Assembly (NCBI GenBank): GCA_016845345.1
Contig: JAERSV010000080.1
Span: 8,750 to 72,749 of the forward strand
Direction: 5' to 3'
DNA: 64,000 nucleotides
Origin: Methanobacteriota archaeon
GTDB taxonomy: Archaea; Thermoplasmatota; Poseidoniia; Poseidoniales; Thalassarchaeaceae
Under the pieces are notes generated by a model, which was given only the letters and a program-made list of their open reading frames with translations, was not told where the DNA came from and made no database searches. The position numbers and the translations under genes are program-made. Shown here piece by piece: positions 21,803 to 39,961 of this stretch (position 1 is the stretch's first letter; every line of letters starts with the position of its first letter).

Positions 21803-21804
21803 TT

Positions 21805-23715
21805 TTATTCCTCCTCGATTTCTTTTTCCTCTAGGTTCTCTATTTCTCTTCCTGAAAATACTACTACCGCTATCAACATTAATGCTATCATTATCCCTAC
21901 ATAGGTGCTCGTTTTAGTTGAACTTACCCCATCATTTCCTCCTGAAATGAGCGGAGCATCTGAATTTGCCAGATGGCACTGAAAACTGCTGGCATCGCTC
22001 TCAGCAAAGAATACATCGCATTGAATCGATTCAATTCCTGTATTTCGGAGGATAATATCAGACAACCGCAGAGAATTGAACTCACTGGTTAACGAATTTA
22101 ACTCAGCATCATTCTCATACCAGAATCTATCTGCATCACGCAGTCTTTGGAACTGGTCCAATACCAACATCTGTTGGGTTTCCCCATAGATTGAATATTC
22201 GAGTCTATCTTCTGCCATTACACCGATATATGCATCGATGCTATCAACATCTAGATACGCTGATGCTAATTTTTGTTGTGAATCAACATCTGAACTGATA
22301 TCACTCCAATTCGTGACCCTCTCAAGCCCAAGACCTTCTCTTAATGAATTGTAATCTGTGAGTCCACGGTCACGGCCTCGTTGGATGTCCATTGCACAAT
22401 CATCCATCCAGCCACCCCACATTGCCCCACTCATCAAGTTGCGAAGACTGGGGATAACTGCCAAATCCATTTCTCTTTGAGTATCGTATGCAGCACCTCG
22501 AATCGTGGTATCAATTCCACCAACCTCAATTAGTGAAGATGAGGTCCAAAAGCCATCCCTCAAATCCAAATGTCCGACTTCAGTTTCGTTGAGTCCTTCA
22601 TCAAATTGCAGCCAACCATCAGCCATCTGACTACCTGTAGCAAATCCTGCTAACAAGATGTATTCATTACTTAATTGTGGATTAATAGTTGAATTATAAC
22701 CGGTATAATCATCCAAATTAATTCCAATGGATGGGAGATATTCATTGTATGTAATCGCTTGAATTTCAGCCTGAACTAATTTCTTCGTCCGCTGAAATAC
22801 CTGTTCATCATTCCAATCAGAATTGCGCTCGCTCACACCATCTGCAATTCGGTTGTGTTCCCTGATGAACAAGACTTGCAGTGAAGTGAGACCAATGTGC
22901 TCTAGGTTCCTTGAATCACCGGTAAAAAATTGGAGATTGGGGTCATCCCCCGACGCACTCTCTACATATTCAGTTATGCGAGCAGGTACCATGTCCCAAC
23001 CTCGAACGTCGGTTACTTTTAGACGCCCCCCCTCACCACTGCGAAGATAATCTTGAAATTCTACACTAAAGGAATATATTGAGCCCCCATCAATCCAACT
23101 ACTCACCTCATTCGGATACTCCCGAGGATTTTCTTCACCATCTCCTGTACCAGAAATGAATTCAGTTCGTAAATATTTGATTCGTGAATCTTCTACACCT
23201 CCTGGATTCATAATTCCATCATCAATTGGAATCAGAATGTGTGCCTCTTCCAGTCCACCTTCATGAGAAGAGTCTTGATGAGTGGTGAGTTGCATATCGT
23301 TGTTGATAAATTCAGACCAAAGTACATTCATGTTTGAAAGACCAAGTGGACTTGGTGTAACACTTGTTTCTACACAAACTTGATTCGAAATAATTCGTGG
23401 ATTTTCATATTCGGGGTGCGCCATTTCAGAGATATTGTCATCAAAAGATGGTGAAGTTAATCGATTGATTTGGCTGTCAACCGCACCCCAATCGTTGTTA
23501 GCAATATTATTGCCACTACCATCATTATTTCTCATTTCTTGCGGTGCCATTTCATCATCAGATGCGAACAAACTCGACTCTTCTTTAGCAACTGGTGTTG
23601 CGGCTGTTGGAAGCGATAACGAGACCGATAAGAGCAAAATTGCCATTATTTGTGAGAAGAAGCGAGTTGCAGTGAAGCCTCGAGAACGCTTTTGCAACCT
23701 ATAGGGGGTAGACAT
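21805..23715 (-). CDS. Paralogous peroxidase-family protein with degenerate active site (putative pseudo-peroxidase), secreted with a C-terminal TM anchor
   Basis: It aligns to the upstream paralogue (GDSRNLEH, LFIREHNRIA), but the distal His is replaced (SEFINNDMQ), the Ca loop is degenerate (WIDGGSIYSFS) and RDHG has become RDRG. It lies 2 nt downstream of the first paralogue. Confidence 0.65.
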   Translation of the reverse strand: MSTPYRLQKRSRGFTATRFFSQIMAILLLSVSLSLPTAATPVAKEESSLFASDDEMAPQEMRNNDGSGNNIANNDWGAVDSQINRLTSPSFDDNISEMAHPEYENPRIISNQVCVETSVTPSPLGLSNMNVLWSEFINNDMQLTTHQDSSHEGGLEEAHILIPIDDGIMNPGGVEDSRIKYLRTEFISGTGDGEENPREYPNEVSSWIDGGSIYSFSVEFQDYLRSGEGGRLKVTDVRGWDMVPARITEYVESASGDDPNLQFFTGDSRNLEHIGLTSLQVLFIREHNRIADGVSERNSDWNDEQVFQRTKKLVQAEIQAITYNEYLPSIGINLDDYTGYNSTINPQLSNEYILLAGFATGSQMADGWLQFDEGLNETEVGHLDLRDGFWTSSSLIEVGGIDTTIRGAAYDTQREMDLAVIPSLRNLMSGAMWGGWMDDCAMDIQRGRDRGLTDYNSLREGLGLERVTNWSDISSDVDSQQKLASAYLDVDSIDAYIGVMAEDRLEYSIYGETQQMLVLDQFQRLRDADRFWYENDAELNSLTSEFNSLRLSDIILRNTGIESIQCDVFFAESDASSFQCHLANSDAPLISGGNDGVSSTKTSTYVGIMIALMLIAVVVFSGREIENLEEKEIEEE

Positions 23716-23872
23716 CTCTCAACCACTTTTTACGAGTAGTTCCTCGGGTTAGAACCTTTTTCTATGGAATGAACTTAAATTTTTTGAACTGTACGATTTA
23801 ATTGTGTGGGGATGTTTCATAGGTAAAATCTCTGTGGTTAATGTTGCCGAAGTACGCGCGAGGGGTTCCATA

Positions 23873-26143
23873 ATGGCAATAAATCAAATTCAACGCCCCA
23901 AAAAAATTGCAATAATTTTGGCAATTCTAACGATTGCAAGCCTTCTTTCAGCACTTCCCTCTCCAGCACTTGCACATTCACAGGGTGTACCAACTGAAAC
24001 AATGGTTACCTTCACCGATGTTTCCGAAGCAAGTGGCATAAGTATCATTGACACTGGTCCAAAAACAAATTGGGTTAGTTATGGACCGGGAATTTCGGTT
24101 GATGATTGTGACCAGGATGGAGACATGGATGTCATGGTTACTGCAAGATACGACCATCTATCTTACGAAAATTCCGAATTTGAATCCGGTTCAATTCAAT
24201 TTATGTTGAACAATGGAGATGGAACATTCACAGACTGGACCATTGAATCTGGCATGAATTTAGAAAATACAACTGTAATCGGGTCTTCTTGGGCAGATTA
24301 CGATAATGATGGTGACAAAGATGTTTATCTCAGCGCTTTTGGCGAATCAGATGTTGATAATTTAGAATCGGGTGAGAAAAATATCCTCTTCAAAAATATT
24401 GGAAATTGTCAGTTTACTGATGTCACTGACCTGACTGGTGTGGGCGAAGGTGCTCAAGCCACCGCCGTTGTAGTAAATGGAAACGTCACGGAAGTTGTAA
24501 TGCAAAATGTAGGGTCAAATTATGCAACATCTGGCGGACTTGCTCCTGCAATTTATTTCCGTGATGCCTACGGTAATGGCGCAGTCGCTGAGGCTATTGT
24601 CACAGTTGACGGTGCTATATCATCGGTTTCCATTACCAATGGAGGCGAGGGTTACGACTCTGAAAATCCACCTGAAGTGATATTTGTCAGCGGTGTGGCT
24701 AACTACGGCCATAGCACAACTGCAATTTGGTCTGACTACGACCATGATGGTGATGTTGACCTCTATTCAATGAATCTCGGCATTGTCGATGAAGAATTAT
24801 ACTGGGCGCGTACAGAAACCAACTTTCTCTATCGAAATGACGGCGATATTGACGGCGACGGTGAGATAGAATTCAGTGATGTAACAAATTTCGCTGGTGT
24901 CAGCGGCCAAGCCGAAGTCTCAGATTCGCCGAATCAATTCTTCCTTTCAGGACTCTACAGAATGGACCAAGCCAGTCCTTCAAACCCCTCAACCATGGCA
25001 CAAATCGCTTCCGCAGATTATCTAGGAACTGGGCTTTCCTTTGCAGGATTATGGTTTGATTATGATAATGATGGCTGGGAAGATCTCTACGTTGCCTCAG
25101 ATTTTGGTATGTCACCAATCTATCACAATAATCGCGACGGTACTTTCACTGTGGTTACAAAAGAGTTGGAAATGGACCTGCCCGGTACTGGCATGGGAGC
25201 ACATGCAGGGGATTGGGATGGAGATGGAGACCTTGACCTGTGTCACTCAAACTTCGGGCCAAACTACCTTTGGGAAAACGATGGTGGGAATTCATTCACT
25301 GAGAGAAGCCGTGACTTGGGATTCCGTGATGCAGGCACCGCTGGCTCATTTGTTGCGGTGAACTGGGCTTGCCAATTCTTTGACTACGACCTTGATGGGG
25401 ATTTGGACATCTTCTTTGGAGTTGGAAGAATCAACCGCTTTACAGCCTACAATAATAATACATTATACAGAAATGATGGTGATATTGATGGTGATGGTTT
25501 TGTCAATTTTGTTGATATTAGTGGCGAAATCGGCTTAAGAACTGGAATTAATGGAAACAAAACCATGGGAGTTTCAATCTTTGATTACGATAATGATGGT
25601 GACTTAGATATCATGCTTGGTCACTCAGACAGAGCACCTCAATTATTCTCAAACAATGCTGTTGAGGAAACCAGCCGCCATTGGCTAAAAGTTCAACTTG
25701 AAGGACGACAGACAGATGTCGCTACATCCGAAAGTGGTGGACAGCGCGATTATTCAAACAGTTATGGTACTGGATGCTTAGTTACCGTGACCCTCAAAGA
25801 TGGTCACCAATTAAGTCAACACGTGTATGCTGGAAGCGGATTCTTAGGAAGTAACGAACCAACTGTTCACTTTGGTTTGGATACTGATGATTCGGTAAAA
25901 TCAGTTGAGGTTGTTTGGTCGACGGGGATTACCCAAATTGAAAGAAATGTTGAAGCAGACCAAACTCTTGTGATGGAGGAACCAACGAGTTTGTTCTTCA
26001 TGCTTTTTGGTATTGGATTACATCAAAATATTAATTCAGCCCTCTATCTATTATTCACTATCATCTTGATTGGTGCTGTATTCAAAATTTATAACACCAA
26101 AAATGATTCAACAACTGAAGATAAAAACTCAGAAGAAGAGTAA
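23873..26143 (+). CDS. FG-GAP repeat / CRTAC1-ASPIC(UnbV)-like cell-surface protein with signal peptide and C-terminal TM
   Basis: It has repeated Ca-binding FG-GAP-type motifs (YDNDGDKDVYLS, DYDHDGDVDLYS, DYDNDGWEDLYVASDFG, DWDGDGDLDLCHSNFGPNYLWEN, DYDLDGDLDIFFG, DYDNDGDLDIMLG) and a C-terminal ASPIC-like segment (GSGFLGSNEPTVHFGL). The ORF is open from 23804; ATG 23873 was chosen because GGTAAAATC sits 42 nt upstream. Confidence 0.6.
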   Translation: MAINQIQRPKKIAIILAILTIASLLSALPSPALAHSQGVPTETMVTFTDVSEASGISIIDTGPKTNWVSYGPGISVDDCDQDGDMDVMVTARYDHLSYENSEFESGSIQFMLNNGDGTFTDWTIESGMNLENTTVIGSSWADYDNDGDKDVYLSAFGESDVDNLESGEKNILFKNIGNCQFTDVTDLTGVGEGAQATAVVVNGNVTEVVMQNVGSNYATSGGLAPAIYFRDAYGNGAVAEAIVTVDGAISSVSITNGGEGYDSENPPEVIFVSGVANYGHSTTAIWSDYDHDGDVDLYSMNLGIVDEELYWARTETNFLYRNDGDIDGDGEIEFSDVTNFAGVSGQAEVSDSPNQFFLSGLYRMDQASPSNPSTMAQIASADYLGTGLSFAGLWFDYDNDGWEDLYVASDFGMSPIYHNNRDGTFTVVTKELEMDLPGTGMGAHAGDWDGDGDLDLCHSNFGPNYLWENDGGNSFTERSRDLGFRDAGTAGSFVAVNWACQFFDYDLDGDLDIFFGVGRINRFTAYNNNTLYRNDGDIDGDGFVNFVDISGEIGLRTGINGNKTMGVSIFDYDNDGDLDIMLGHSDRAPQLFSNNAVEETSRHWLKVQLEGRQTDVATSESGGQRDYSNSYGTGCLVTVTLKDGHQLSQHVYAGSGFLGSNEPTVHFGLDTDDSVKSVEVVWSTGITQIERNVEADQTLVMEEPTSLFFMLFGIGLHQNINSALYLLFTIILIGAVFKIYNTKNDSTTEDKNSEEE

Positions 26144-27226: not shown

Positions 27227-27234
27227 AGAAAAAT

Positions 27235-28599
27235 TCACAGATTGCCATTACAGACTGGACAATACTGCCAACTTTGTTCTACCCCAATCCCACAACGAGA
27301 GCAATTTTTTCCCGACTGAATGTTGTGGTGAATTGGTTGGGCTTGTGCTTGTGGAGCATGTGGTCCGCCACTTACCAAATCTGAAACTGAATCAAGGGCA
27401 GATTGCTCAGGATGGTTCGAAGGAGCCGCTGGCCACCCAGTATCAGGCATCTGTGGCGGTTCTTGAGATTGCAACCCTATTGCCGGGGCTGATGGAGAAC
27501 TTGAACCGATTGGAGCGCGCTTTGGTGTGACGGCTTGAGAGGGAGGTTGCACTGGTTCTGTCGGTGTGGGTTGTGCAATTTGTGGTTCTACAACAGGCTC
27601 AGGCTGTTCTACTACAGGTGGTGATGGTGAAATACCCTCTTGAAGAGTTGAAACTGGTTCTGCATCCACTGGTGAAACCGGCACATCTATATCTGCAGCA
27701 GCAGAAAACTGAGAAGCGAATGCATCGCTAGCATCAACCTGCTTAACCTCTGTTGGTCGATTTGATTCAATTTCAAGTGCTGGTTCCTTTGCAATAACCA
27801 TGGGTTTAGTTACCGCTTCTTCAGTCGGTTTTTGAGATACCACATTTACCGGTTGAGGAGATGTTGGTGCTGGCGCTGGCGCTACTACTGGCGCAGGCGA
27901 AGGCACCATGGCTGGCGCTGGTGATGGCACAGACGCAGGCGCTGGACCAACTTGCGGTGTTGGCGTCGGCGCTACGACAGGAGCCGGAGCTGGCTGAGTT
28001 GCATGAGTTGGTGCACCAAGACATGAAATTGGCGTCACGGACCCCGTCTTGGCCTGCTCAATTGCGATATTCAATTCTTGAGATAATTGTAACAAGACTG
28101 CTTTGTTGGCGGCCGGTGACGCGACCAATCCTGCATATTGTGAAACATAATGTCCGAGTAATGGTAATCCACCGATTAAATGCCCCAGTCCGAACATTTT
28201 GAGTAGAGAAAAGATATCTGTTAGTGATTCAAGTGCATTCATCTCGTGTTCGACAAAACCTGGGTGTACTCCTACGTTACCCTCCGAATCTTCTCCCCCA
28301 AGGAAAAACCTGAGTGGATCGCTGAGAGAAACTAGACCAAAAGGCCCTGTCAGGAGATAATATATCTCGCCACCCTCACAACTAAGTCTTTGAGCAGCCT
28401 CTTCAAAACCAAATTCTGGTTGTAAAACCAAATCAATAGCGATTGAGAAAAACTCACCCATTCCATTTATTGGGTCTGTCTGATTAAGGTGCAAGATAAT
28501 GTCAGCCGAATCTGTTACACCGAAGTATGCTGCAGCTTCGTCCACAGCAATTCCTTGCGGCAATGAGGCTCCTTCAACCTCAACCTCGCTTGGATTCAT
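27235..28599 (-). CDS. Hypothetical protein with N-terminal globular domain, ~200-aa Pro/Ala/Val-rich linker and C-terminal CxxC...CxxC zinc ribbon
   Basis: It has PAPAPVVAPTPTPQVGPAPASVPSPAPA repeats and the C-terminus CSRCGIGVEQSWQYCPVCNGNL. Its start lies 27 nt after the stop of the giant gene upstream, on the same strand. Confidence 0.5.
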   Translation of the reverse strand: MNPSEVEVEGASLPQGIAVDEAAAYFGVTDSADIILHLNQTDPINGMGEFFSIAIDLVLQPEFGFEEAAQRLSCEGGEIYYLLTGPFGLVSLSDPLRFFLGGEDSEGNVGVHPGFVEHEMNALESLTDIFSLLKMFGLGHLIGGLPLLGHYVSQYAGLVASPAANKAVLLQLSQELNIAIEQAKTGSVTPISCLGAPTHATQPAPAPVVAPTPTPQVGPAPASVPSPAPAMVPSPAPVVAPAPAPTSPQPVNVVSQKPTEEAVTKPMVIAKEPALEIESNRPTEVKQVDASDAFASQFSAAADIDVPVSPVDAEPVSTLQEGISPSPPVVEQPEPVVEPQIAQPTPTEPVQPPSQAVTPKRAPIGSSSPSAPAIGLQSQEPPQMPDTGWPAAPSNHPEQSALDSVSDLVSGGPHAPQAQAQPIHHNIQSGKNCSRCGIGVEQSWQYCPVCNGNL

Positions 28600-28625
28600 T
28601 TGTCATTCTCTCCTGATTAATTCGT

Positions 28626-31600
28626 TCAATTTAATCCTGCTTCATTGACAATATATCTAGATTGTTTTGCATTCCAACCACTGGTTTGCAATTGACGAAG
28701 AATATTTCTTTCTGCTTCACCTGAGGCAATTGATTCACGGGCTTCACCAAGGGACTTTTCATAGTTTGCAGAATCTCTTGGAGTGAAAAGGTCCTCCCAC
28801 TTTTTCGGTGCCGTGGACTTTTTCGATTTCCTAGCTCCTTCCTCTGATTTGGTTCCACTTGGCTTCTTTCGTGTGGACCTTGTCTTTACATTCTCTGGCT
28901 TTGGTGCACCCGCAACCTTGCGAACTTTGCGCGAAGAAGCATCAGCCGGAGGCGCATCATCTGAAACTACGGTCCTGCGTGTTTTCTTGGCTCGAGGTGC
29001 GGGACTTGATGGGCTACTTCCTGCACGGCTTTGAGGCCCTGCACGGCCGGGAGGGCCGGCCGCTCGGCCCGGCGGCCCTCTTGAACCACCTGCGCTACTT
29101 GGGCCTCCTGCTTGAGGACCTCTAGAAGGCCCTCCACCTCCACGACTTGGAGGGGCTGCTCGTGCAGGAGGTGCACCTCGACTAGGTTGATTTCCTCCTA
29201 AGCCAGAAAAGTCCTGTCTTGCCGCAGGTGCGTTCCAACCACCTTGAGATCTTGAAGCAAATATATCATCATCGTCATCTTCTTCAAATTCATCATACAT
29301 ATCATCGTCATCATCATCCCAATCATCACCACCACGGATGATTCTAATGACAACCAATGAGATGATGACTAGAGCCAGTAAAGCCCCTATACCGGCACCG
29401 ATCATTTTCAGCGGCAATGTTGAAGATTCAGTTGAACCGTACCATTCATCGTACCATTCACAAGATTGATATTCTTCAGGAACAATCATTCCTGGACTTA
29501 ATGATGGATTGTAAAAATCCTCCCATTTTGTACATTCATCTACAGCATTACCATCGGCACCGGTTGCGGCTGGACATCCTACTCCTTGGACGCCATCTAT
29601 AACTCCGGGAGTAAATGGACATTCATCGCCTTCAAAACCTGAAATATTGTCACCAAACCCATCTCCATCGTTGTCTTTCCATTGGGTTGGGTCATTGATG
29701 AAAGCGTCAGCCCCTTCTTCAAAACCCCAGCCTGCCGCGGGGTCTGACCAACCATCACCGTCTGTATCAGGGCAACCCCAACGGTCACCGTTAGGTGGGC
29801 CTGTTGAATTACCTGCAACATTTGTACAACTATCACCTTGGAAACCACTCAATTCGTTTCCAAAGCCATCCATATCTAAGTCACCCCACTGGGTAGACTC
29901 AAGAGGAAATTTATCTACGTCATCAAAGAAGCCGTCGCCGTCTGTATCAATGTCATTTCGTGGACAACCGACTTCATTCACTTCGGCACCAGCAATAGTC
30001 CCAGCACATTCATCTAAGGCGTTTGAAACACCATCATTATCCTCATCCAGTTGATATGTAGCACATCCTGTTACATTATTGAAAAACTCATCAATTCGAA
30101 GCAGATCTGTGTCTGGGCATTCATCCTCAATGTCAGGGACACCATCCTCATCAGTATCAAGCGTCAATTGGTCCTGACTACAACCGTTTACATCAACCTC
30201 CGCAAGCGCAGTCGTGTTAGCACAACGGTCTAATGAATTTGAGACACCATCACCGTCGTCATCCTTTTGATTTTCAGAACAACCCTTCCATTGACCAGAG
30301 GTATCAACCACCTCCCCAATTGTAGTATTACCACAAATGTCGTCATCATCGATGATACCATCGCCATCAGAATCCTCTGCAGGAAGGGGGCATCCGCGTC
30401 CACCATCCCCATTCGCATAGCCAAATTGTTGGGGGCAAAAATCTCCATTTGTACGATTTGTGAAATCTCCATAGCCATCGCCATCGGAATCTCTCCATTG
30501 TTCTGGATTAGAGCTATTTGAATCGGCGTTGCCCGTCGGGTGTGCACTCTCTAAAGTATCTGGATTAGACCAGCCATCCCCATCATCATCTAGACATCCA
30601 AATCTATCAACACTTGAGTTACCCCAAGAAACTGGACAAGAATCGGGAGTAGTGCCTGTGGGATTATCACCAAAACCATCTAGATCGGTGTCATTCCACT
30701 GGGTTGGGTCCTCATTGAAAGCATCTTGCCGCCAAGCATCAGTCGTGGTATTATCTCCATAACCATCCCCATCTTTGTCATGCCATTGTTGAGAACAATT
30801 GGCGATACTACCACACGGTTCACCCGCATTTCCATTTCCACCCGGCCAATTATCAGCGCATCCATTTCGGCCATCTGAATCTATTGCATTACATTGGCTA
30901 CGATTGTAAATCCATGTGCTTTCTTGCGCATTTTGGGCTATGTGAGGGTCTGACCAACCATCACCATCTGTATCTAAACAGCCACCACGGTCATGAGCAG
31001 AAAAACCCTGTAACTCAGGGCACTGGTCACCTGTCCAATCAATATTGAACCAATCAGGTTGATTATCACCATCAACATCATGGCCGTTGAATAAACGTAG
31101 GGTTTCGTTGGCAAATTGGAAATTATGGTTATCTCCCCAACCATCATTATCCAAGTCCTCCCATTGGTTTCCATTCAAGGGATAAATATCAGTTGAAGAA
31201 CTCCCACAGCAATCAGGTCCGTGGTTATCATAATGGCCATCTTCATCTGTGTCTCTCTGTTGATGCCAATTCACAGGGTTTTGGTCGCCATCTGTACTCC
31301 AACCATCACCATCAGAGTCTGCACAGCCTTTTCTGTCAACCCATGAGTTACCCCTAGTGTATAGACAAATATCAACAGCGTCTGCCCATCCATCTAGGTC
31401 TTGGTCACTACAGCCGAAGTATCCCCATCTACTTCCTCTATCAAGTAAATCAGTACCACTGTTAATGCACTGGTCGGGGGTAGGACCACCCGGATTATCT
31501 CCGTAGCCGTCAGCATCAGCATCATTCCACTGACCACCAACACGAGGGACCTCATCCCATGGTAGAGGCACGAAATCGCGGTCCCAATCATTGTAGATGC

Positions 31601-34600
31601 GATAACTTGTCAGACGGTTATTTGAATTCAGATCAAAGTGGCATGCTACAACTCTAATTACACCTGTAGCATCAGTTTCCATATCAACTCCGCAAATGTT
31701 ACCGGCTGCTGTTGCGGTATACACGGGCTCAACCGTTGAACCATGAATTATTGCCAATGTCATTCGCTCTACGCCGGGGCCACCATCAAATGCAATCCAA
31801 GGCACTCCTTCACCAGTACTTCCTGCACTAAACAAAACATTTGAGAAATAACCAATTGACAAAGCCACACAATTGGCCGTACTAATTGTACAGAGTTTTG
31901 CATCAGAGGTTTGGGTTTGTTCAGTAAACAACACCATGTTTTGGTTCAGAATATGTGACTTCAAATCTGATGTTGGAGTCAATGACGAAGTCATCAATGA
32001 TGTGACATTGCTTTCATTTACTGACAATACTTCTGCCACACCAGAATCATTTGCAAGGGCAACCTGCAAGGTTCCGTCGCTCAGGCAAGCAACATCATTG
32101 TCACTTTGGTATCCCCAAATTGAGAAGGTTGTAACAGTTCCACCCGCATCAATGTAACTTAGAGTCGTTTCGTTTGTACTAACAACTGAACTAACTAAGA
32201 CGCCAGTTCCATTATCAAGTTGACAACCAGAACTGGCACCATATTCTTCGGAGCCATTTGAATTTGTACCACTAATGTTCCAACTGTCGCTCACACTTGG
32301 TGATTGATGAGTTAAAGCATGTGTACTTGAAATTCCAGCCCCAAGCGAACTATTGGTTACTACTGTAGAAGTCAAGAATCCAGAATCTGTTTCCGCTCTC
32401 AATTCAACATCTGAAACTGTGGCATTTTGGTAAGATGTTGTGAAAATTAAACTCTGCTCATCATCAATAACCAAATCAATATCCATTCGATTATGTGTTG
32501 CAAGAGGATGCTGTGTTGTCAGAATAGTGTGAGCACTTTGCTCAACAAAATTATTATTGTCATCAAGTACAATTGTTTTTCCTGACCTCGTCACAACCAT
32601 TGATGCAATCTCGGAATATGAGATTCCTTGCCATTCCTCAGCAGAGTTTGTGACTGCATTTGGCCTTTCTAAATGCCGTGTTTGATTTAAAACACCTGAT
32701 TTCAAAAATAAGTGAAACCTTCCAGAATCATCCAAATGAAGGTCGGCATTATCAATGGCAGCACCCCCAGCAATCTGAATATCAGAATACTCATTATTTC
32801 GCTTTTCAATTTGAATGACTACACCTGCAGAGTTGCCATCCATGTCCTTATCAAGAGATGTAACGATGATTTCAAATTGACCATCTCCATCCGTATCTCC
32901 CCCACCATTTACAGTCCTTCCAAGGTGTTGGCCACTCACACCTTCCATGAGAATTGAGTTGACCCCTTGACGTAAAAGTTGAGAATTATCTGCGAAGAAG
33001 TACTCGACTTTCCCTGCACCAACGCTGTTAATTCCTATTGAAGAAATTGCAATTTCAGAAAGGCCGTCATCATTGATATCTCCGATCGCTGACAATGCGC
33101 TTCCAAATGCTTGACTTGATTCTGTACCGACCAACTCTTGTGCTGGGTTATCTGGAAGACCATTAGCCGAGCCACGTAGAACTGTTACTTTGCCCAATGC
33201 TAAATTGTCGTAAAGCGGTTCACTATATGCAAAATCATCATACCCATCTTCATTGACATCGCCTATTCCAAGTACAGAGTACCCAAGTAATGTGTTAGTT
33301 GTTGTAGTTGTCCAGTAATTATCTATTGACATCACTCCTGTTTGTGACCCTTTGTAAACCTCCACTCTACCATTTCCTGTAAGGTCGGAAAACGAGCCCG
33401 CTGCCCCCATCGCAATGTCATCAAATCCATCACCATTGATGTCACCAATTCCAGCTAGGGACCAACCTTGAATTACGTTCGACCAATATCCTCTGGTGTA
33501 CCAATCGTGATCTGTATCTGGCCCATTTGCTGAGCCCAAATAAAGGTAGACTTTTCCTTCACCACCTGATTGTGTAAATCCAGTTGCGGCAACAAGAATG
33601 TCGGCGTAACTGTCGTTATTGACATCGCCAGCTGATGAAACTGTTCCACCGAATTTATCTCCTCCTCCTTCACCTGAGTCGGACCAATTTGCAGTCGAAT
33701 AAGTGCGGTTTCCACCATAGAATAAGTAAGATGTTCCTGTTGCAAATCCTAGACTATTAGTTGCGCCAATAGCGCCAATCAGAAGATCTGAACAGCCATC
33801 ACCATTGACATCACCTGCATTGGCTATTGATGAGCCAAATCTATCTCCGCCGGCAGTTCCTGTAAGATTGTAATCAGGGTTAGATGAAAGTCCCATCCCT
33901 GAGCCCCAAAAGATGTCAACAGCACCTGTTTCAGAATTAGCAGCCGGCCGGCTAACAATCAAATCATCAGTTCCGTCACAATCAAAATCAAGGTCATTGA
34001 TGGCTTGAGTTGCATATTCATCACTGACTGCACCAGTCGTCAAAGTATCAATTGATGGTGAAAGACGACCATTTTCTTGTCCTGTCAAATCACGTACAAT
34101 GGTTAACTCAGAAGAATTTGAAGACCCGTAAACATACTGGATGTTGCCGGTTGATGGGTCCTCAGCAAATGACATGGCTGGCCCAAGGCCTTGCCCGGCA
34201 GTCAGAGATTTGAGATCCCAATTTCCATCTGTGTCTAAAACCCCATGAATTATTTGTGTGGTATCTAGATTTTTGTAGAATATGTGTAGAGCATCATCAG
34301 CGTCAATAAATGCATCATATTGCGTACCTACCCTTGTGCCCACTAACAAATCTTCGTGGGTCCACCACGTTCCATATGATGACAGATGAAGTCCATTGTC
34401 GGAATCTAGCCAAAGGACATTCTCAGCCCCGTCGGAATCAAGCAATATAGAAATTTGAGCGACTTGGCTCTCATTTTGAATAGTTCTCATATTCCAAAGT
34501 CCACTTGCTCTTTGATATGCCACTCTGAGGAATCCTGATTCATTTGTGTATGCAACATGTATCAATTCACGCTCATCAACGATGATTGAACATTTCTTGC

Positions 34601-35024
34601 CAAGTTCTACTCCGCCAGAATCAATTTGAGTCAAAGTGGTGTCACCACCAAATTCCAAAGTGGCAATCCATACACCTCCTGTATCCTGATGCAAACAACC
34701 TCTTGCTCTGCCTCTATCATCTCTTGAAAGTTCTATTTCATCGAAAGTTAGAGAGGTATTGAGGGCAGTTGTTTGCCAGACATCCATTCCTCGAGTTGAA
34801 TCAACTACCCAATCAGTAGCGTTGATAATCATAGTTTGGCCTGCAAATTGCTCACCACTGCCATTTGAAAATGAAGTGCTAGGGGCAATTACTTCATTTT
34901 CCTCAAGAGATAATTCTCCACTCGGTGATATTGAGAGAATTGGAGTCAGTACAGAAACCAACATCAAAAGAATCAATGCCGCAGGCAGTAACAACTCTCT
35001 GCTTGCTACTCTTTCGGCCCCCAT
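28626..35024 (-). CDS. Giant (2132 aa) type-I membrane surface protein with signal peptide, integrin-alpha-like FG-GAP repeats, many thrombospondin type-3-like Ca-binding repeats, a TM helix and a ~250-aa cytoplasmic tail
   Basis: FG-GAP-type repeats include DVNGDGCSDLLIGA, DINGDGFDDIAMGA and DVNEDGYDDFAYSEPLY. TSP3-type repeats include DADADGYGDNPGGPTPDQC, DSDGDGWSTDGDQNP and DKDGDGYGDNTTTD. The TM helix is IGAGIGALLALVIISLVVIRII. The tail starts with poly-Asp (DDWDDDDDDMYDEFEEDDDDD), then a Gly/Pro/Arg-rich stretch, then a Lys-rich stretch. Confidence 0.7.
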   Translation of the reverse strand: MGAERVASRELLLPAALILLMLVSVLTPILSISPSGELSLEENEVIAPSTSFSNGSGEQFAGQTMIINATDWVVDSTRGMDVWQTTALNTSLTFDEIELSRDDRGRARGCLHQDTGGVWIATLEFGGDTTLTQIDSGGVELGKKCSIIVDERELIHVAYTNESGFLRVAYQRASGLWNMRTIQNESQVAQISILLDSDGAENVLWLDSDNGLHLSSYGTWWTHEDLLVGTRVGTQYDAFIDADDALHIFYKNLDTTQIIHGVLDTDGNWDLKSLTAGQGLGPAMSFAEDPSTGNIQYVYGSSNSSELTIVRDLTGQENGRLSPSIDTLTTGAVSDEYATQAINDLDFDCDGTDDLIVSRPAANSETGAVDIFWGSGMGLSSNPDYNLTGTAGGDRFGSSIANAGDVNGDGCSDLLIGAIGATNSLGFATGTSYLFYGGNRTYSTANWSDSGEGGGDKFGGTVSSAGDVNNDSYADILVAATGFTQSGGEGKVYLYLGSANGPDTDHDWYTRGYWSNVIQGWSLAGIGDINGDGFDDIAMGAAGSFSDLTGNGRVEVYKGSQTGVMSIDNYWTTTTTNTLLGYSVLGIGDVNEDGYDDFAYSEPLYDNLALGKVTVLRGSANGLPDNPAQELVGTESSQAFGSALSAIGDINDDGLSEIAISSIGINSVGAGKVEYFFADNSQLLRQGVNSILMEGVSGQHLGRTVNGGGDTDGDGQFEIIVTSLDKDMDGNSAGVVIQIEKRNNEYSDIQIAGGAAIDNADLHLDDSGRFHLFLKSGVLNQTRHLERPNAVTNSAEEWQGISYSEIASMVVTRSGKTIVLDDNNNFVEQSAHTILTTQHPLATHNRMDIDLVIDDEQSLIFTTSYQNATVSDVELRAETDSGFLTSTVVTNSSLGAGISSTHALTHQSPSVSDSWNISGTNSNGSEEYGASSGCQLDNGTGVLVSSVVSTNETTLSYIDAGGTVTTFSIWGYQSDNDVACLSDGTLQVALANDSGVAEVLSVNESNVTSLMTSSLTPTSDLKSHILNQNMVLFTEQTQTSDAKLCTISTANCVALSIGYFSNVLFSAGSTGEGVPWIAFDGGPGVERMTLAIIHGSTVEPVYTATAAGNICGVDMETDATGVIRVVACHFDLNSNNRLTSYRIYNDWDRDFVPLPWDEVPRVGGQWNDADADGYGDNPGGPTPDQCINSGTDLLDRGSRWGYFGCSDQDLDGWADAVDICLYTRGNSWVDRKGCADSDGDGWSTDGDQNPVNWHQQRDTDEDGHYDNHGPDCCGSSSTDIYPLNGNQWEDLDNDGWGDNHNFQFANETLRLFNGHDVDGDNQPDWFNIDWTGDQCPELQGFSAHDRGGCLDTDGDGWSDPHIAQNAQESTWIYNRSQCNAIDSDGRNGCADNWPGGNGNAGEPCGSIANCSQQWHDKDGDGYGDNTTTDAWRQDAFNEDPTQWNDTDLDGFGDNPTGTTPDSCPVSWGNSSVDRFGCLDDDGDGWSNPDTLESAHPTGNADSNSSNPEQWRDSDGDGYGDFTNRTNGDFCPQQFGYANGDGGRGCPLPAEDSDGDGIIDDDDICGNTTIGEVVDTSGQWKGCSENQKDDDGDGVSNSLDRCANTTALAEVDVNGCSQDQLTLDTDEDGVPDIEDECPDTDLLRIDEFFNNVTGCATYQLDEDNDGVSNALDECAGTIAGAEVNEVGCPRNDIDTDGDGFFDDVDKFPLESTQWGDLDMDGFGNELSGFQGDSCTNVAGNSTGPPNGDRWGCPDTDGDGWSDPAAGWGFEEGADAFINDPTQWKDNDGDGFGDNISGFEGDECPFTPGVIDGVQGVGCPAATGADGNAVDECTKWEDFYNPSLSPGMIVPEEYQSCEWYDEWYGSTESSTLPLKMIGAGIGALLALVIISLVVIRIIRGGDDWDDDDDDMYDEFEEDDDDDIFASRSQGGWNAPAARQDFSGLGGNQPSRGAPPARAAPPSRGGGGPSRGPQAGGPSSAGGSRGPPGRAAGPPGRAGPQSRAGSSPSSPAPRAKKTRRTVVSDDAPPADASSRKVRKVAGAPKPENVKTRSTRKKPSGTKSEEGARKSKKSTAPKKWEDLFTPRDSANYEKSLGEARESIASGEAERNILRQLQTSGWNAKQSRYIVNEAGLN

Positions 35025-35122
35025 GGGGCCGATGGAAACATTGTTCCTGTAAAAGGGTAGTCAATAGATGTGGCTTACATTGGACTAGCAAAACGAATAA
35101 GTTAGCGGCCAGTACGACAATC

Positions 35123-35749
35123 GTGGAACAAGATGTAACACTGCTGATTGCGGCAGGAGAAGTCGGTGACAATTCCACAATAAAAACTGCTTGTAAAACG
35201 GCTTCAAGAGTAATCGCAGTCGATGGCGGAGTCAAGCATTTGAGACAACTAAATATCTCACCCAACATCATTGTTGGTGACCTTGACTCAGCTACAGATG
35301 ATGATATAGAATGGGCACAAAATGAGGGCGCAGAAACTCTTCGTTTAGACGGGCAATCTGAGAGTGATTTAGCAAAGGCACTTGACCTATGCGCACAACG
35401 AGGTTGGACAAAGGTGGTTGTGATTGGTGTGGAGGGTGGTCGGCCCGACCATCAAGTCGCGGTATTTGCAGCGCTTTCTGATGCTGATTCATCTCTTGAA
35501 ATTAAAACTCATCTTAATCGAACTTTAGTATTCAGATTTGTTGAAGGATTTGATGGCACCTTTTCTTCAATCGAAACGTTCTCCCTGTTCTCCCTAACAG
35601 ATGTCATAATTTCATTGAGAGATTGCCAGTGGGAACTTGATAATGAAAAATTAAGATTGTCGACTAGAGGATTATCAAACAAAGCCGCAGGTGATGTGAG
35701 ATTGAATGTTCATCATGGCGGCCCAGTATTTGTATTCGTCAATCTATGA
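35123..35749 (+). CDS. Thiamine pyrophosphokinase
   Basis: It has IIVGDLDS (GDxDS) and GVEGGRPDHQVA (GGRxDH) motifs. The ORF is open from 34925 but overlaps the divergent giant gene; GTG 35123 is proposed as the start. Confidence 0.55.
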   Translation: MEQDVTLLIAAGEVGDNSTIKTACKTASRVIAVDGGVKHLRQLNISPNIIVGDLDSATDDDIEWAQNEGAETLRLDGQSESDLAKALDLCAQRGWTKVVVIGVEGGRPDHQVAVFAALSDADSSLEIKTHLNRTLVFRFVEGFDGTFSSIETFSLFSLTDVIISLRDCQWELDNEKLRLSTRGLSNKAAGDVRLNVHHGGPVFVFVNL

Positions 35750-35792: not shown

Positions 35793-36203
35793 CTACACCC
35801 ATGGTAAACCCAACGCAATCCCGACTAGGTCAAGGATTACATAATTCCAGACCATGTAAGTTACAAGAGTAATTGTGATTACTGCCAAAGATGTGTTAAC
35901 TATTCTACGACGCTCTCTTTTTGCATGGTCTAGTGTGCATATTCCACGGCTTCTGAAATGAAAGATTAACCCTGCTATCACCATTCCCAACGCAACTAAA
36001 TAAAGAATCGGACGAGCCACTCCGTAGTACAAATCATTCGATAATTGGTCGGCTGCTACTATCGCAGATGAACCCGCAAAAAGAACCCATATTACACTGG
36101 GAAAACAACACATGCTTGCCGTTAGTGCACCTAATCCAATCGTTTTCCATAATGATTTTGCCCCAGAAAGAATGTCTTCATCTTGTGCTGATTCTGAATC
36201 CAT
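35793..36203 (-). CDS. Small hypothetical membrane protein (4 TM)
   Basis: Hydrophobic profile only. Confidence 0.45.
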   Translation of the reverse strand: MDSESAQDEDILSGAKSLWKTIGLGALTASMCCFPSVIWVLFAGSSAIVAADQLSNDLYYGVARPILYLVALGMVIAGLIFHFRSRGICTLDHAKRERRRIVNTSLAVITITLVTYMVWNYVILDLVGIALGLPWV

Positions 36204-36273: not shown

Positions 36274-37617
36274 TTATACTTCGGAATAAGGTACCCACTG
36301 CCCAGATACTTGATCAAACCAATCAACAGCACCATCGGGATGTTGTCGCCAATAAACACCAGTTGGGTCGACGTAAGATGGTAAACCATCAGAGTCAGGT
36401 TCTAATTCCATGGCATTAACATCGCCATATGCCATTTCTTCCTCGCCGCGTCGATTCCACATTGCACCGCCAAATAATCCCAACAAGATTGCAACCCCAA
36501 TACCGATAATCAATACGACCCCTTGGGCCGCTAATATTGACTCGCCGAAGAATGGTGTTGGTTCATATTCTTCACCAAACGAACGTTCTGGCCACATATT
36601 TTCTGGTCCTGCCGCTTCTAACACTTCAGCAGATACTTCACCAATAGGTGGTAAGCGAACCAAATTGAATGCCCCTCGAGTTGATTGGCCTTCTGGTGAA
36701 GTCACGGTGACTCTGACCTTGCTGAATCCTACCTGCCATAGACGGCAATCAACTGTTGAAAATCCAGGAACTGAAACATCTTCTCCTCGAGGGTCAGTAA
36801 TTTCCCAATCAACAGTCATCAATGCCATCACAGTTCCAATTGATGGCTCGATTGCCACAGTACATGGCGAGCCAACTTCGTCATTATTTCCGGTTACATT
36901 GAGTGTGAACACTGGTGGAGGCAGAGAGTGAATAGTGAAATCTTTTGTTGTTGAAGTTGAGAATCCTAGAGTGTTCTGGTAAAACATTTCCAAGTGATAA
37001 TCACGAGCAGGCCATGTTGAGCAATCAATATCTGAAAGGTCACTAGGAACTAGCCAAGGTGTACCGCTCAGAGAAATAACACCAGTTGCGCCATAAAGGT
37101 CACCAATCTCATCAAGGAATACTCTTTCAACCACACAATCATCACCCAGGAAAATCGTAGGTGCTGCCTCTAAATCAAATCTTAAGTATGGGGCAGAGAG
37201 GCTCGCCATCAACTCATATTCACCAAAATCTTCTGAGAAAACTATCATGTTTGTCTCAGCGTCCCATACCTTCATTCTAACAATAAAAGTACCATCACCC
37301 CAAGCCTGAACATCTGTTGAACCAAAATAAGGGGTAGTACGGTTAAACGTTAGATTATCCCAGAAAGTGAGTGTCATGCCGGCATGCTCCACATCGATTT
37401 GAACTGCTGCTTCGGCATAGTGTGAAGTCGTGTTGAGAAGATAAACGACTCTGATGGTATCTCTATCGCCATCATTGTCTAAATCTAGCCTGTCAGCTCT
37501 TGAACTATCAACCCCAATGTGAGGTGCATCTTGGGCTGAAACTGCAGAGGCAAAAATAGGCATTAATAATACAATAAGTGACAAAAATGCTACATTCTGT
37601 TTACTCAAGGAGTTCAC
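36274..37617 (-). CDS. Hypothetical secreted surface protein with signal peptide, C-terminal TM and short cytoplasmic tail
   Basis: The signal is VAFLSLIVLLMPIFASAVSA and the C-terminal helix is VVLIIGIGVAILLGLFGGAMW. It overlaps the next gene by 17 nt. Confidence 0.5.
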   Translation of the reverse strand: MNSLSKQNVAFLSLIVLLMPIFASAVSAQDAPHIGVDSSRADRLDLDNDGDRDTIRVVYLLNTTSHYAEAAVQIDVEHAGMTLTFWDNLTFNRTTPYFGSTDVQAWGDGTFIVRMKVWDAETNMIVFSEDFGEYELMASLSAPYLRFDLEAAPTIFLGDDCVVERVFLDEIGDLYGATGVISLSGTPWLVPSDLSDIDCSTWPARDYHLEMFYQNTLGFSTSTTKDFTIHSLPPPVFTLNVTGNNDEVGSPCTVAIEPSIGTVMALMTVDWEITDPRGEDVSVPGFSTVDCRLWQVGFSKVRVTVTSPEGQSTRGAFNLVRLPPIGEVSAEVLEAAGPENMWPERSFGEEYEPTPFFGESILAAQGVVLIIGIGVAILLGLFGGAMWNRRGEEEMAYGDVNAMELEPDSDGLPSYVDPTGVYWRQHPDGAVDWFDQVSGQWVPYSEV

Positions 37618-39961
37618 CCCCGTCCTCCTTGCGCAAAGCCGTTACGAAGAGGAATGTAAACAAGAAAATAATAAGCGGAGGAAGGAATGTGAATATCGAA
37701 GATGACGGGTTTTCTGACATCAATGAAATGTGAGCGTTGATGGTTCCGTATGAGTCACTGAAACCGTCGCTGTTGGAATCTGGACACCCTTGCAAATCAA
37801 TGGACGAGGTGCCTGCCTCTGTAGGGCAGTCATCTCTTAGACTTCCCATGGTGTTGTCACCGTATCCATCACCATCTTGGTCAGACCATTGTAGACGATT
37901 CTTCGGGAATGCATCTGCTTCTCCCTCTGGATTTGCTAACCATGTCTCATCAGGGTCTGAGTAACCATCTCGGTCAATATCAGGGCATCCTAAACGATCA
38001 ATCAGTGATACCCCAAGGCTCACTTCCTCAAAGGGGCAAGCATCGGATTGGTGGCCAAAACTATTGTCCCCAAATCCATCGCCATCCGAATCTGCCCATT
38101 GACTAGGGTCATACGGGAATCTGTCGCCCATGTCACTATACCCATCATTGTCAGAATCTGTGCAACCATGACGGTCTTCGCGGCTCGTCCCGGGTGTTTC
38201 CTTACACCGGTCCGGACTTGTTGCCCCTGCTGCCTGGTTATCACCAAAACCATCTCCATCAATGTCTTCCCATTGGGTCGGGTCATTGATGAACGCATCT
38301 GCCTCACCAAATGGATTTGCTAACCAACCAAGTTCTGGTTGAGCATCCGAAGAGCCATCGCCATCTGTATCAGGACAGCCCCACCGATCGCGATATGATT
38401 TACCAAAGGTTGCAACACAGGAATCAGATTGCCATGCACCTGGTTCTTGGTTATCTCCAAATCCATCGCCATCAACATCATGCCATTGCGTGATTTCTTC
38501 AGGGAACGCGTCGCCAAATCCAGATGGATGTGCTAACCAATTTCCGTCAGGGTTTGAATATCCATCACCATCTGAATCGGGACATCCAAATCGGTCCTGA
38601 TGAGAACTTCCAATCCTATTGACACAAGAATCCGGTTGAGAACCCGAAAGGTTGTCTCCGTATCCGTCCCCGTCTAAATCAGCCCACTGAGTTGGCTCAT
38701 TTGAAAAGTTATCAGCCTGCGTAGCACCATTTGCCGTGTTATCCCCATAACCATCCCCGTCTGTGTCGAGCCACTGGGTTGGATTGTCAGGGAAAGCATC
38801 AGGGTCTGTACCGAGCGGATTATCACCAAAACCATCCAAATCTCGGTCTGCCCACTGAGTTGGGTCATTGGGGAAAGCGTCGGCGCAGTGAGTTTCTTCG
38901 CTCTGGCAAAGCGCTGGGTCGTGCGTCCAGTTCACACTTGGATTTGACCAACCATCACCATCGCTATCTACACAACCAAATCGGTCTTCTGTAGAATTGC
39001 CCCATTTTGTAGGGCAAAAGTCAGGGCGAGTTGCGTTTTCAACAAATTCTCCAATCCCTGTTCCATCTCTCAATACTCCCCAACTCACGTCTGCCCAATT
39101 GTCACCAAAAGAATCTGAATCAGTATCATGCCATTGAGTATCATCTTGGAAAAATGCGTCAGCACCGTCTGAAACATACCAAGGCGAGTCCGACCAGAGC
39201 GATGTCGGGTCAGGGTCGGACCAACCATCGGCATCACTATCAGTGCACCCGTTTCGGTCTTGTGTTGAATGTCCGTAGAAGTCTGGGCAACCATCAGGAT
39301 TGTTTGCAGGTGCAGGATTGTCACCAAAATCATCACCATCTGAATCGTGCCATTGAGTGTCATCACTAGGGAAAGCATCGGCCCCTTGAGTTACAGTCCA
39401 CCCAGAACTAGGGTCACTATATCCATCCCCGTCAGAGTCTGGACAACCATCCCTATCAGATGTTGAATCGCCAGGCGTGGTATCACAATCATCGTTATTG
39501 TCGGTAAATCCGTCCTCATCGGTATCTCGGTATCCAGTCTGGAGTTGGGGAGTTACATCGTAATCGAATTGACTTGAAAACCATCCATCTGGCACTGCTT
39601 TAATACGGAAAAAATACCAGTCATGTGATGTTGCAGTGGCTGCAATATTTCTGGTTCCATCATTTGCGAAATTCGTTGATGTCAACTCATTTCCAGCGGA
39701 ATCGTAAATTCCCATTTGTCCATCATAACCATCAAAGGTTCCATGGCAACATGTGCTCACACTGAGGCTCACTGAATCGCCGGTCCAGGCTTCTATTTTC
39801 CACCAATCCGTAGTGTCACCATCTGCGTCTACAGCACCACTACTAGTAGAGCCGTCTGTTAGAAGAGCGGCAGTTGAGATTGAGTTGTCTGCAGAAACTG
39901 TAGGAATTGGGATGAGAGTAAGGGCAATGAAAATCGCAATTACACGTAGCCCGGCTCGCAT
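37601..39961 (-). CDS. Thrombospondin type-3 repeat-rich secreted protein with C-terminal TM anchor
   Basis: It has about 15 repeats of D-x-D-x-D-G-(Y/F/W)-x-D motifs flanked by GCPD (for example DTDEDGFTDNNDDCD and DRDGCPDSDGDGYSDP). The signal peptide is VIAIFIALTLIPIPTVSA and the C-terminal helix is PPLIIFLFTFLFVTAL. Confidence 0.7.
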   Translation of the reverse strand: MRAGLRVIAIFIALTLIPIPTVSADNSISTAALLTDGSTSSGAVDADGDTTDWWKIEAWTGDSVSLSVSTCCHGTFDGYDGQMGIYDSAGNELTSTNFANDGTRNIAATATSHDWYFFRIKAVPDGWFSSQFDYDVTPQLQTGYRDTDEDGFTDNNDDCDTTPGDSTSDRDGCPDSDGDGYSDPSSGWTVTQGADAFPSDDTQWHDSDGDDFGDNPAPANNPDGCPDFYGHSTQDRNGCTDSDADGWSDPDPTSLWSDSPWYVSDGADAFFQDDTQWHDTDSDSFGDNWADVSWGVLRDGTGIGEFVENATRPDFCPTKWGNSTEDRFGCVDSDGDGWSNPSVNWTHDPALCQSEETHCADAFPNDPTQWADRDLDGFGDNPLGTDPDAFPDNPTQWLDTDGDGYGDNTANGATQADNFSNEPTQWADLDGDGYGDNLSGSQPDSCVNRIGSSHQDRFGCPDSDGDGYSNPDGNWLAHPSGFGDAFPEEITQWHDVDGDGFGDNQEPGAWQSDSCVATFGKSYRDRWGCPDTDGDGSSDAQPELGWLANPFGEADAFINDPTQWEDIDGDGFGDNQAAGATSPDRCKETPGTSREDRHGCTDSDNDGYSDMGDRFPYDPSQWADSDGDGFGDNSFGHQSDACPFEEVSLGVSLIDRLGCPDIDRDGYSDPDETWLANPEGEADAFPKNRLQWSDQDGDGYGDNTMGSLRDDCPTEAGTSSIDLQGCPDSNSDGFSDSYGTINAHISLMSENPSSSIFTFLPPLIIFLFTFLFVTALRKEDGGELLE

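Follow-up and report, generated by a model that had tools for sequence, protein, structure and literature searches.

A giant surface protein with a cytoplasmic tail and its downstream neighbor, a fixed gene pair of Marine Group II archaea

The window analyzed here is a 64,000-nucleotide stretch of contig JAERSV010000080.1 (assembly GCA_016845345.1, positions 8,750 to 72,749) from a Thalassarchaeaceae (Marine Group II b) archaeon, and our subject is a pair of adjacent minus-strand genes in it, namely the open reading frame (ORF) 28626-35024(-), which encodes a giant protein of 2132 amino acids, and the ORF 27235-28599(-), which encodes a protein of 454 amino acids that will be called the partner. 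The two are a fixed gene pair of the Marine Group II (MGII) archaea, or Poseidoniales. The giant is a type-I membrane protein composed of a signal peptide, a beta-propeller, calcium loops, one transmembrane helix and a tail of 236 residues, and what is new here is that it combines an ectodomain common among surface proteins with a cytoplasmic module, conserved and specific to the lineage, and with a partner. The best-supported reading, which we put forward tentatively and at somewhat less than an even chance, is that the cytoplasmic tail is a functional module of a core envelope protein and that the giant and a dedicated, co-transcribed partner constitute an envelope-to-cytoplasm coupling module.

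The gene pair and its conservation

Hydropathy analysis of the giant revealed residues 5-36 as an N-terminal signal or anchor and about residues 1870-1896 as the only transmembrane helix (hydropathy 2.83), whereas the partner showed no hydrophobic segment and no transmembrane helix. The reading frames and hydropathy thus agree with the initial annotation, which had described a 2132-residue protein with one membrane span, followed on the same strand by a cytoplasmic protein. The spacer between the two genes (28600..28625, minus strand), previously given as 27 nt, is 26 nt long as read from the sequence; it holds a Shine-Dalgarno-like GGAGAG at 28608-28613, 9 nt ahead of the ATG of the partner, and has no oligo-T tract. 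A T5 tract (27229..27233, minus strand) lies one base past the partner stop codon and is a possible archaeal terminator, such that the two genes may be transcribed together.

The distribution of the pair was determined in both directions. In a scan anchored on the partner, with one genome per GTDB species, relatives were found in 231 species, all of them Poseidoniales and representing both families. The 80 loci kept from this search were labeled Poseidoniales, Thalassarchaeaceae, Poseidoniaceae or generic Euryarchaeota/Methanobacteriota, the sole exception being a contig of a mislabelled 'Yoonia' bin; the matches included the original MG-II assembly CM001443, and the closest relatives of the window were Thalassarchaeaceae, with 97% identity in the N-terminal domain of the partner (locus L006). 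In about 75 of 84 loci, the ORF that preceded the partner, ending 26-215 nt before it, was a giant; the exceptions were cut or frameshifted contigs. Measured from stop to stop, these giants were about 2020-2235 amino acids long, with one of 1673. In the orthologs, the plan of the tail was retained, i.e., the last transmembrane helix was followed by an acidic/aromatic block, a basic middle rich in Gly, Pro, Ser and Arg, and a terminal GW..xQSR, in tails of 160-250 amino acids with one outlier of 375. In the reverse direction, a metagenome scan anchored on the terminal domain of the tail retrieved 489 stretches; among the best 80 of these, 77 had at least 300 nt of downstream DNA, and in all 77 the N-terminal motif of the partner was found downstream, on the same strand and within 700 nt. 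The uncut ORFs that carried the tail domain in these loci had 2044-2181 amino acids. Conservation of the tail and synteny of the downstream gene, on both of which the initial annotation had staked its case, therefore held. Because the same overall architecture is found throughout an archaeal order, the features of the two proteins are far above chance. Two apparent fusions of giant and partner, P0160 and P0146, turned out to be frameshifted read-throughs of the junction and not Rosetta-stone fusions.

Column conservation was calculated from a 48-sequence alignment of full-length giants. The last 32 residues scored 0.70, and the calcium-loop repeats (residues 1151-1800) scored 0.55-0.73, except for two 50-residue windows at 1301-1400 that scored 0.40-0.45, whereas the disordered spacer of the tail scored 0.29-0.35. 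Judged by this alignment, few parts of the giant are better conserved than its last 32 residues, which are comparable to its calcium sites.

The cytoplasmic tail and the partner protein

All features of the two proteins described from here on lie on the minus strand. The transmembrane helix, observed in about 70 orthologs, occupies residues 1870-1896 (29337..29417) and is followed by RIIRGG, and the sequence directly past it is RIIRGGDDWDDDDDD. The tail itself spans residues 1897-2132 and can be divided into four segments. The first is a juxtamembrane acidic/aromatic block, DDWDDDDDDMYDEFEEDDDDDIF (residues 1897-1921; 29262..29336), in which RGG is followed by an acidic stretch of 22 residues, Trp, Tyr and Phe among them, with a net charge of -17; the corresponding block in the orthologs contains 9-20 Asp or Glu and 3-7 Trp, Phe or Tyr. 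The second is a disordered, basic segment rich in Gly, Pro, Ser and Arg and built of GPSRG and GPPGRA units (residues 1922-2019; 28968..29261; net charge +14, pI 12), the composition of which is kept among orthologs whereas its sequence and repeat number vary (column conservation 0.29-0.43). The third is a Lys-rich segment with a KVRK motif (residues 2020-2075; 28800..28967; net charge +11), which is predicted to be disordered, given its predicted local distance difference test (pLDDT) values of 45-58, and of which a KVRKAK-type motif is kept in both families. It is to be noted that the order of these segments is as initially annotated, although the tail had been described as 250 residues long and led by poly-Asp, whereas it has 236 residues and its acidic block just 22.

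The fourth segment is a small C-terminal domain (residues 2076-2132; 28629..28799), the presence of which had also been anticipated. An AlphaFold model built from 13 sequences folded residues 2076-2131 into three helices at a pLDDT of about 90, and ten residues of the domain were invariant across the order, namely F2080, R2106, L2112, Q2113, G2116, W2117, Q2121, S2122, R2123 and I2125. A Foldseek search of the PDB returned nothing significant for this domain (best E=1.3), and no consistent relative emerged from Pfam (including scans of each alignment member), NCBIfam or PDB sequence profiles. Three-helix folds of the UBA-like, HTH-like or PEX14-like type were considered and found to be unsupported, with no Foldseek match in the PDB at E<0.8. 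A word-indexed search with the profile of the domain retrieved 12 tail fragments only, and in the protein and metagenome searches together the domain occurred solely at the end of the giant and on no other type of protein. The homologs of the tail C-terminus are, in other words, the tails of the same Poseidoniales giant.

The partner consists of two putative binding modules that flank a long linker. Its N-terminal part (residues 1-198; 28006..28599) comprises a peptide of the form PxGIxVDEAAAYFG and an acidic, all-alpha domain, with 27 invariant columns and a net charge of -20. Residues 30-195 were modeled at a pLDDT above 90 and residues 1-25 at 41-51; the most conserved peptide of the protein falls in this N-terminal segment of low confidence, and the model suggests that it may be a docking motif that folds upon binding. 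No fold relative of the N-terminal domain was found in the PDB (Foldseek, none at E<0.8), and no Pfam or NCBIfam family was found for the partner, scans of the individual alignment members included. An exhaustive search with a hidden Markov model (HMM) of the N-terminal domain matched 115 clusters out of 1.84 billion representatives, nearly all of which were of the same family or fragments of it, with one marginal match of 183 amino acids (P0186, E=1.7e-5).

The linker (residues 199-425; 27325..28005) is rich in Pro, Ala and Val and disordered, with a pLDDT below 50; the Pro-rich linker initially noted is thus present, although it measures 227 rather than 200 amino acids. It carries the conserved motifs DAFASQF and PKRAPI, which correspond to DAFxxxF and P(K/V)RxP(I/L) in the family as a whole. 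In the family alignment, this linker sits where most orthologs have a pair of EF-hands: EF-hand loops were found in 40 of the 55 complete partner orthologs and none in the partner of the window. The family profile matches calmodulin at E=1e-8, a PDB profile search of the partner returned only the EF-hands of the orthologs, and precomputed Pfam EF-hand matches exist on the orthologs as well. The clade of the window has lost the EF-hand pair, and Pro-rich sequence has taken the place of the region. Partners of the Poseidoniaceae contain long, perfect (EP)n runs and polyglutamine tracts with regularly spaced Trp, such as QQQQQQQQWQQQ (loci L056, L060, L120, L129, L143, L147 and L163). As a separate matter, these two kinds of tract might draw metatranscriptome reads spuriously.

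The partner ends in CSRCGIGVEQSWQYCPVC, within which lies a C-terminal zinc ribbon, IQSGKNCSRCGIGVEQSWQYCPVCNGNL (residues 426-454; 27238..27324), of the form CxxC-x11-CxxC. All four cysteines of its CSRC-x11-CPVC are invariant in the alignment, as are Gly and Trp columns; the pLDDT is about 82 and the family-wide consensus is IQSGxxCxxCGIGxxxxWxxCPVC. The ribbon noted in the initial annotation is present, and it gave weak matches to Pfam Zn_Ribbon_1 and DZR (E of about 1e-3), which lie under the cut-off.

The ectodomain and its likeness to known systems

The giant begins with a hydrophobic leader or signal peptide (residues 1-36; 34917..35024; hydropathy peak 5-36), and its orthologs share the same N-terminus. 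The N-terminal ectodomain that follows (residues 37-335; 34020..34916) has no Pfam match and a column conservation of 0.35-0.54. Next comes an FG-GAP beta-propeller with calcium-binding loops (residues 336-745; 32790..34019; Pfam FG-GAP E=2e-14), in which seven D-x-[DN]-x-[DN]-G loops recur at a spacing of about 60 amino acids between residues 346 and 720, indicating a full propeller of seven blades. The middle ectodomain (residues 746-1165; 31530..32789) is rich in Ser and Thr, matches no family and has the lowest conservation of the ectodomain, 0.32-0.45. The remainder (residues 1166-1850; 29475..31529) is made of Cys-containing, Asp-rich calcium-loop repeats of DxDxDG pattern, resembling thrombospondin type-3 (TSP3) repeats; a pattern search counted 17 such loops with paired cysteines in residues 1168-1800. 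The ectodomain contains 40 cysteines and 33 N-glycosylation sequons, whereas the cytoplasmic tail contains none of either, which fits an outside/inside split at the transmembrane helix and, along with hydropathy, bears out the type-I topology initially assigned. A Pfam scan of the whole giant detected only FG-GAP, FG-GAP_3 and a weak TSP_3, and no thrombospondin C-terminal lectin-like domain.

The initial annotation had called the giant integrin/TSP3-like and had compared the pair to an integrin and its adaptor; its reading as a whole is partly supported. The best PDB sequence matches of the propeller were the calcium-binding blades of integrin alpha-IIb and alpha-V (E=2e-18 to 1e-14), and the giant shares with integrin alpha the seven-blade FG-GAP propeller with calcium-binding loops, the single-pass type-I topology and the possession of a cytoplasmic tail; a soluble cytoplasmic protein is here as well, although it is just proposed as a partner of that tail. 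Unlike integrin alpha, however, the giant has no thigh or calf leg domains (Integrin_alpha2), the PDB matches covering the propeller blades only, and no juxtamembrane GFFKR, and its tail of 236 amino acids is unrelated in sequence and not short. No integrin beta subunit (betaI/VWA domain) was present among the neighbor genes scanned, and the partner, in contrast to talin and kindlin, has no FERM/PTB domain or detectable fold relative. The comparison with an integrin and its adaptor is at best an analogy of layout and not one of membership, the giant being integrin-like in its propeller only. The thrombospondin label is weak. Tandem Asp-rich DxDxDG loops with paired cysteines are also found in thrombospondin type 3 and in MtsC, a cell-cohesion protein of Myxococcus, but the repeats of the giant score under the curated thresholds (Pfam TSP_3, 16 bits against a cut-off of 25; a partial match to NCBIfam throspo3_MtsC, E=2e-12, far under its cut-off), have no PDB sequence match and lack the thrombospondin C-terminal domain; judged on this pattern, 'TSP3-like' describes them acceptably but does not make them members of the family.

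The FG-GAP/VCBS repeat surface proteins of prokaryotes (Bacteroidota, Ignavibacteria, Sumerlaeota and others) have a propeller that is clearly homologous to that of the giant. The propeller region gave 3223 matches to bacterial FG-GAP repeat proteins at 30-38% identity over about one-third of the query, and because thousands of such proteins match this part of the giant and no other, the propeller is to be considered an ordinary prokaryotic surface module. The giant belongs to this broad kind of surface protein, with its signal peptide, transmembrane helix and FG-GAP repeats, and its signal peptide, 33 sequons and C-terminal membrane anchor are also features of archaeal S-layer-type glycoproteins. 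Overall, the ectodomain, with its FG-GAP propeller and DxDxDG repeats, represents a type of adhesion or envelope module that is common in prokaryotes. The difference lies at the other end: many of the bacterial FG-GAP matches listed have extracellular domains such as the Por secretion C-terminal sorting domain (PF18962), whereas in searches with the tail and the partner neither cytoplasmic domain was found outside the Poseidoniales.

The partner, for its part, recalls two other kinds of protein. ZipA and TonB are tether proteins with Pro-rich segments, and the partner is like them in that its two putative binding modules are separated by a long Pro-rich or (EP)n linker; it differs in having neither a transmembrane helix nor homology to them, and in that a helical domain specific to the lineage forms one end and a zinc ribbon the other. 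Most partner orthologs resemble EF-hand sensors in carrying a canonical, calmodulin-like EF-hand pair; in these orthologs, however, a disordered linker surrounds the pair, with an unrelated module on either side, and the partner of the window has no EF loop.

Possible coupling, neighboring genes and biological meaning

In the coupling module that we tentatively propose, the giant is an order-wide, glycosylated and calcium-loaded envelope protein of the Poseidoniales, encoded at a single locus, and its tail leads from the acidic/aromatic block next to the membrane, through about 150 amino acids of basic disordered spacer, to a strongly constrained three-helix domain at the end. This end domain, perhaps with the charged blocks, would recruit the downstream partner by physical contact. 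The partner would serve as a long, flexible tether that docks through its N-terminal peptide and acidic helical domain and bears the zinc ribbon at its opposite end, with an EF-hand pair between the two in most lineages. Together, the giant and the partner would couple the envelope to a cytoplasmic target, a coupling that may be modulated by calcium in most lineages and may extend to signaling. Several observations are consistent with this proposal. Both cytoplasmic domains are confined to the Poseidoniales lineage, the EF-hand pair of the orthologs fits a regulatory or sensing partner, and the basic spacer of the tail (+25) is electrostatically complementary to the acidic N-terminal domain of the partner (-15 to -27).

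A number of results weigh against such coupling. Covariation between the tail domain and the N-terminal domain of the partner, measured as mutual information with average product correction (MI-APC) over 61 non-redundant sequences, reached a top value of 0.445, just marginally above the 0.39 of the M29-like control. The acidity of the partner is not special, because the proteome is acidic overall, and the end domain of the tail is itself mildly acidic (-8 to +2), which disfavors binding to an acidic domain. Calcium control cannot be general, since the partner of the window has no EF-hands. Synteny, moreover, is weak evidence for a functional link, because unrelated flanking genes are equally fixed: a thiamin pyrophosphokinase (TPK) gene, upstream and on the opposite strand, is kept in 51 of 52 loci, and an M29/NicX-like gene, downstream, in 62 of 62. 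The pair is still set apart by lying on one strand, with tight spacing and a Shine-Dalgarno-like site, by having a common lineage restriction and by the exposure of both proteins to the cytoplasm.

An alternative is that the giant, as an adhesin or envelope protein, has a passive role and that the partner is unrelated to it. The tail would then serve for anchoring, membrane retention or lateral packing, and the downstream gene would be there because a whole chromosomal block has been inherited unchanged in the Poseidoniales. The equal fixation of the TPK and M29-like genes, a covariation not convincingly above the control, and the fact that FG-GAP surface proteins are very common and usually occur without such a partner all speak for this. 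Nonetheless, it leaves unexplained why a folded terminal domain should keep ten invariant residues across the order, and why the last 32 amino acids of a 2132-residue protein should be so highly conserved, nor does it account for a giant and a partner that share strand, tight spacing and lineage restriction. We regard it as unlikely.

More doubtful still is that the tail acts alone, with a separate role for the partner. Its basic spacer, rich in Arg-Gly and Lys, and an end domain of helix-turn-helix-like form would attach to nucleic acid, be it nucleoid or RNA, or to anionic lipids, making the giant a membrane-tethered anchor or regulator, possibly one that is released by proteolysis. RG-rich repeats are classic nucleic-acid binders; the spacer, with its pI of 12 and net charge of +25, stands out in an acidic proteome, and the KVRKAK basic arm immediately precedes the three-helix bundle. 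Against this, the end domain is net negative in most orthologs, over the range given above, and neither a helix-turn-helix family in the per-member Pfam scans nor a significant match to a DNA-binding fold was found.

The coupling proposal can also be extended into a bolder one, namely that the Poseidoniales independently evolved an adhesion-receptor system with true transmembrane coupling, a functional analog of integrin and talin assembled from orphan domains. The calcium-loaded ectodomain with its integrin-alpha-like propeller would be wired, through the three-helix tail domain and the polyampholyte spacer, to a dedicated EF-hand/zinc-ribbon tether, which would connect the envelope with the nucleoid, with the cytoskeleton or with a cortical condensate. 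We consider this extension improbable.

Least probable of all, and indeed very unlikely, is that the low-complexity regions form a sub-membrane mesh or condensate, a cortical layer below the envelope with a structural and not a signaling role, to which the acidic and RG/K blocks of the tail, the Pro-rich, (EP)n and polyglutamine-Trp linkers of the partners and the Trp-rich cytoplasmic end of p447, an upstream neighbor described below, would contribute: the oppositely charged tail blocks, the variable repeat numbers, the (EP)n and polyglutamine-Trp tracts of the Poseidoniaceae and the conservation of the WW-like p447 end in 46 loci agree with it, but the argument is purely compositional and the p447 motif has no family match. 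Genes for disordered proteins are reported to be very highly expressed in MGII, which agrees with the mesh as well: in a Red Sea mdRNA-seq study, 93% of the RNA-seq reads on MGII contigs are reported to come from 13 mRNAs for disordered proteins, of which one cluster was annotated 'collagen-like cell surface protein' (PMC5069720). Tails or partners of the kind described here might be among them; these highly expressed proteins could not be matched to the giant or partner genes, however, which counts against the mesh.

Upstream of the giant lie two further genes for type-I surface proteins. The first, p447 (36274..37617, minus strand), encodes 447 amino acids, with a cytoplasmic end of about 55 residues that bears the Trp-rich motif PDxEGLPTxxDxxGxLWRxHxDGxxDWWDxxxxxW. 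It lies about 1.2-1.5 kb upstream of the giant in locus L001 and 45 others, and was syntenic in 45 of 52 loci; it has no Pfam match, and its resemblance to WW domains was noted by eye alone. Going by its sequence, this end could bind the Pro/Arg-rich segments of the giant tail or of the partner, and p447 possibly belongs to the same envelope cluster. The second, p786 (37601..39961, minus strand), encodes 786 amino acids that consist almost wholly of DxDxDG/Cys repeats as in the giant, followed by a C-terminal transmembrane helix and a short tail, and was syntenic in 33 of 52 loci. The genes for p786, p447 and the giant are a conserved envelope-gene block.

Other observations in the window concern genes around this block. 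The TPK ORF as listed, 34925-35749(+), starts at a GTG at 34925 and has 274 amino acids, overlapping the start of the giant by 100 nt; since its orthologs have 191-209 amino acids, the true start is probably at about 35120-35180, which would leave a divergent promoter region, and a TTTTA occurs 26-30 nt ahead of the ATG of the giant. A variable slot holds a multi-pass membrane protein of 136 amino acids here (35793-36203, minus strand), which was found in only 8 loci, and a protein with an Lnb_N domain in the Poseidoniaceae locus L001. Two tandem genes annotated 'animal haem peroxidase', 19880-23715(-) and 23804-26143(+) (Pfam E=1e-141 and 1e-115), adjoin an FG-GAP/ASPIC protein; this trio stands beside the block in only 9 of 62 GTDB loci and thus looks like a clade-specific insertion. 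Finally, 44352-49172(-) encodes a protein of 1606 amino acids with a right-handed beta-helix plus PKD/Ig-like domains.

In the literature, 'thrombospondin genes' have been described as widespread in the Poseidoniales and read as adhesion genes (Rinke et al. 2019, PMC6461757), and calcium-binding families specific to the Poseidoniales have been reported (Méheust et al., PMC9258230). Our literature search on the Poseidoniales found no description of the tail of the giant or of the partner. Marine Group II archaea have not been cultured and count among the most abundant archaea of surface seawater, and their cell envelope and particle attachment are essentially undescribed, while the gene pair presented here is core to this globally abundant order. 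Even if the two proteins do not interact, the conserved tail would still point to a function, as yet unexplained, that a core envelope protein has in the cytoplasm. If they do, the giant would be one of the rare prokaryotic adhesion or envelope proteins to have a coupling partner dedicated to it in the cytoplasm, and two new orphan domains would gain a testable role.

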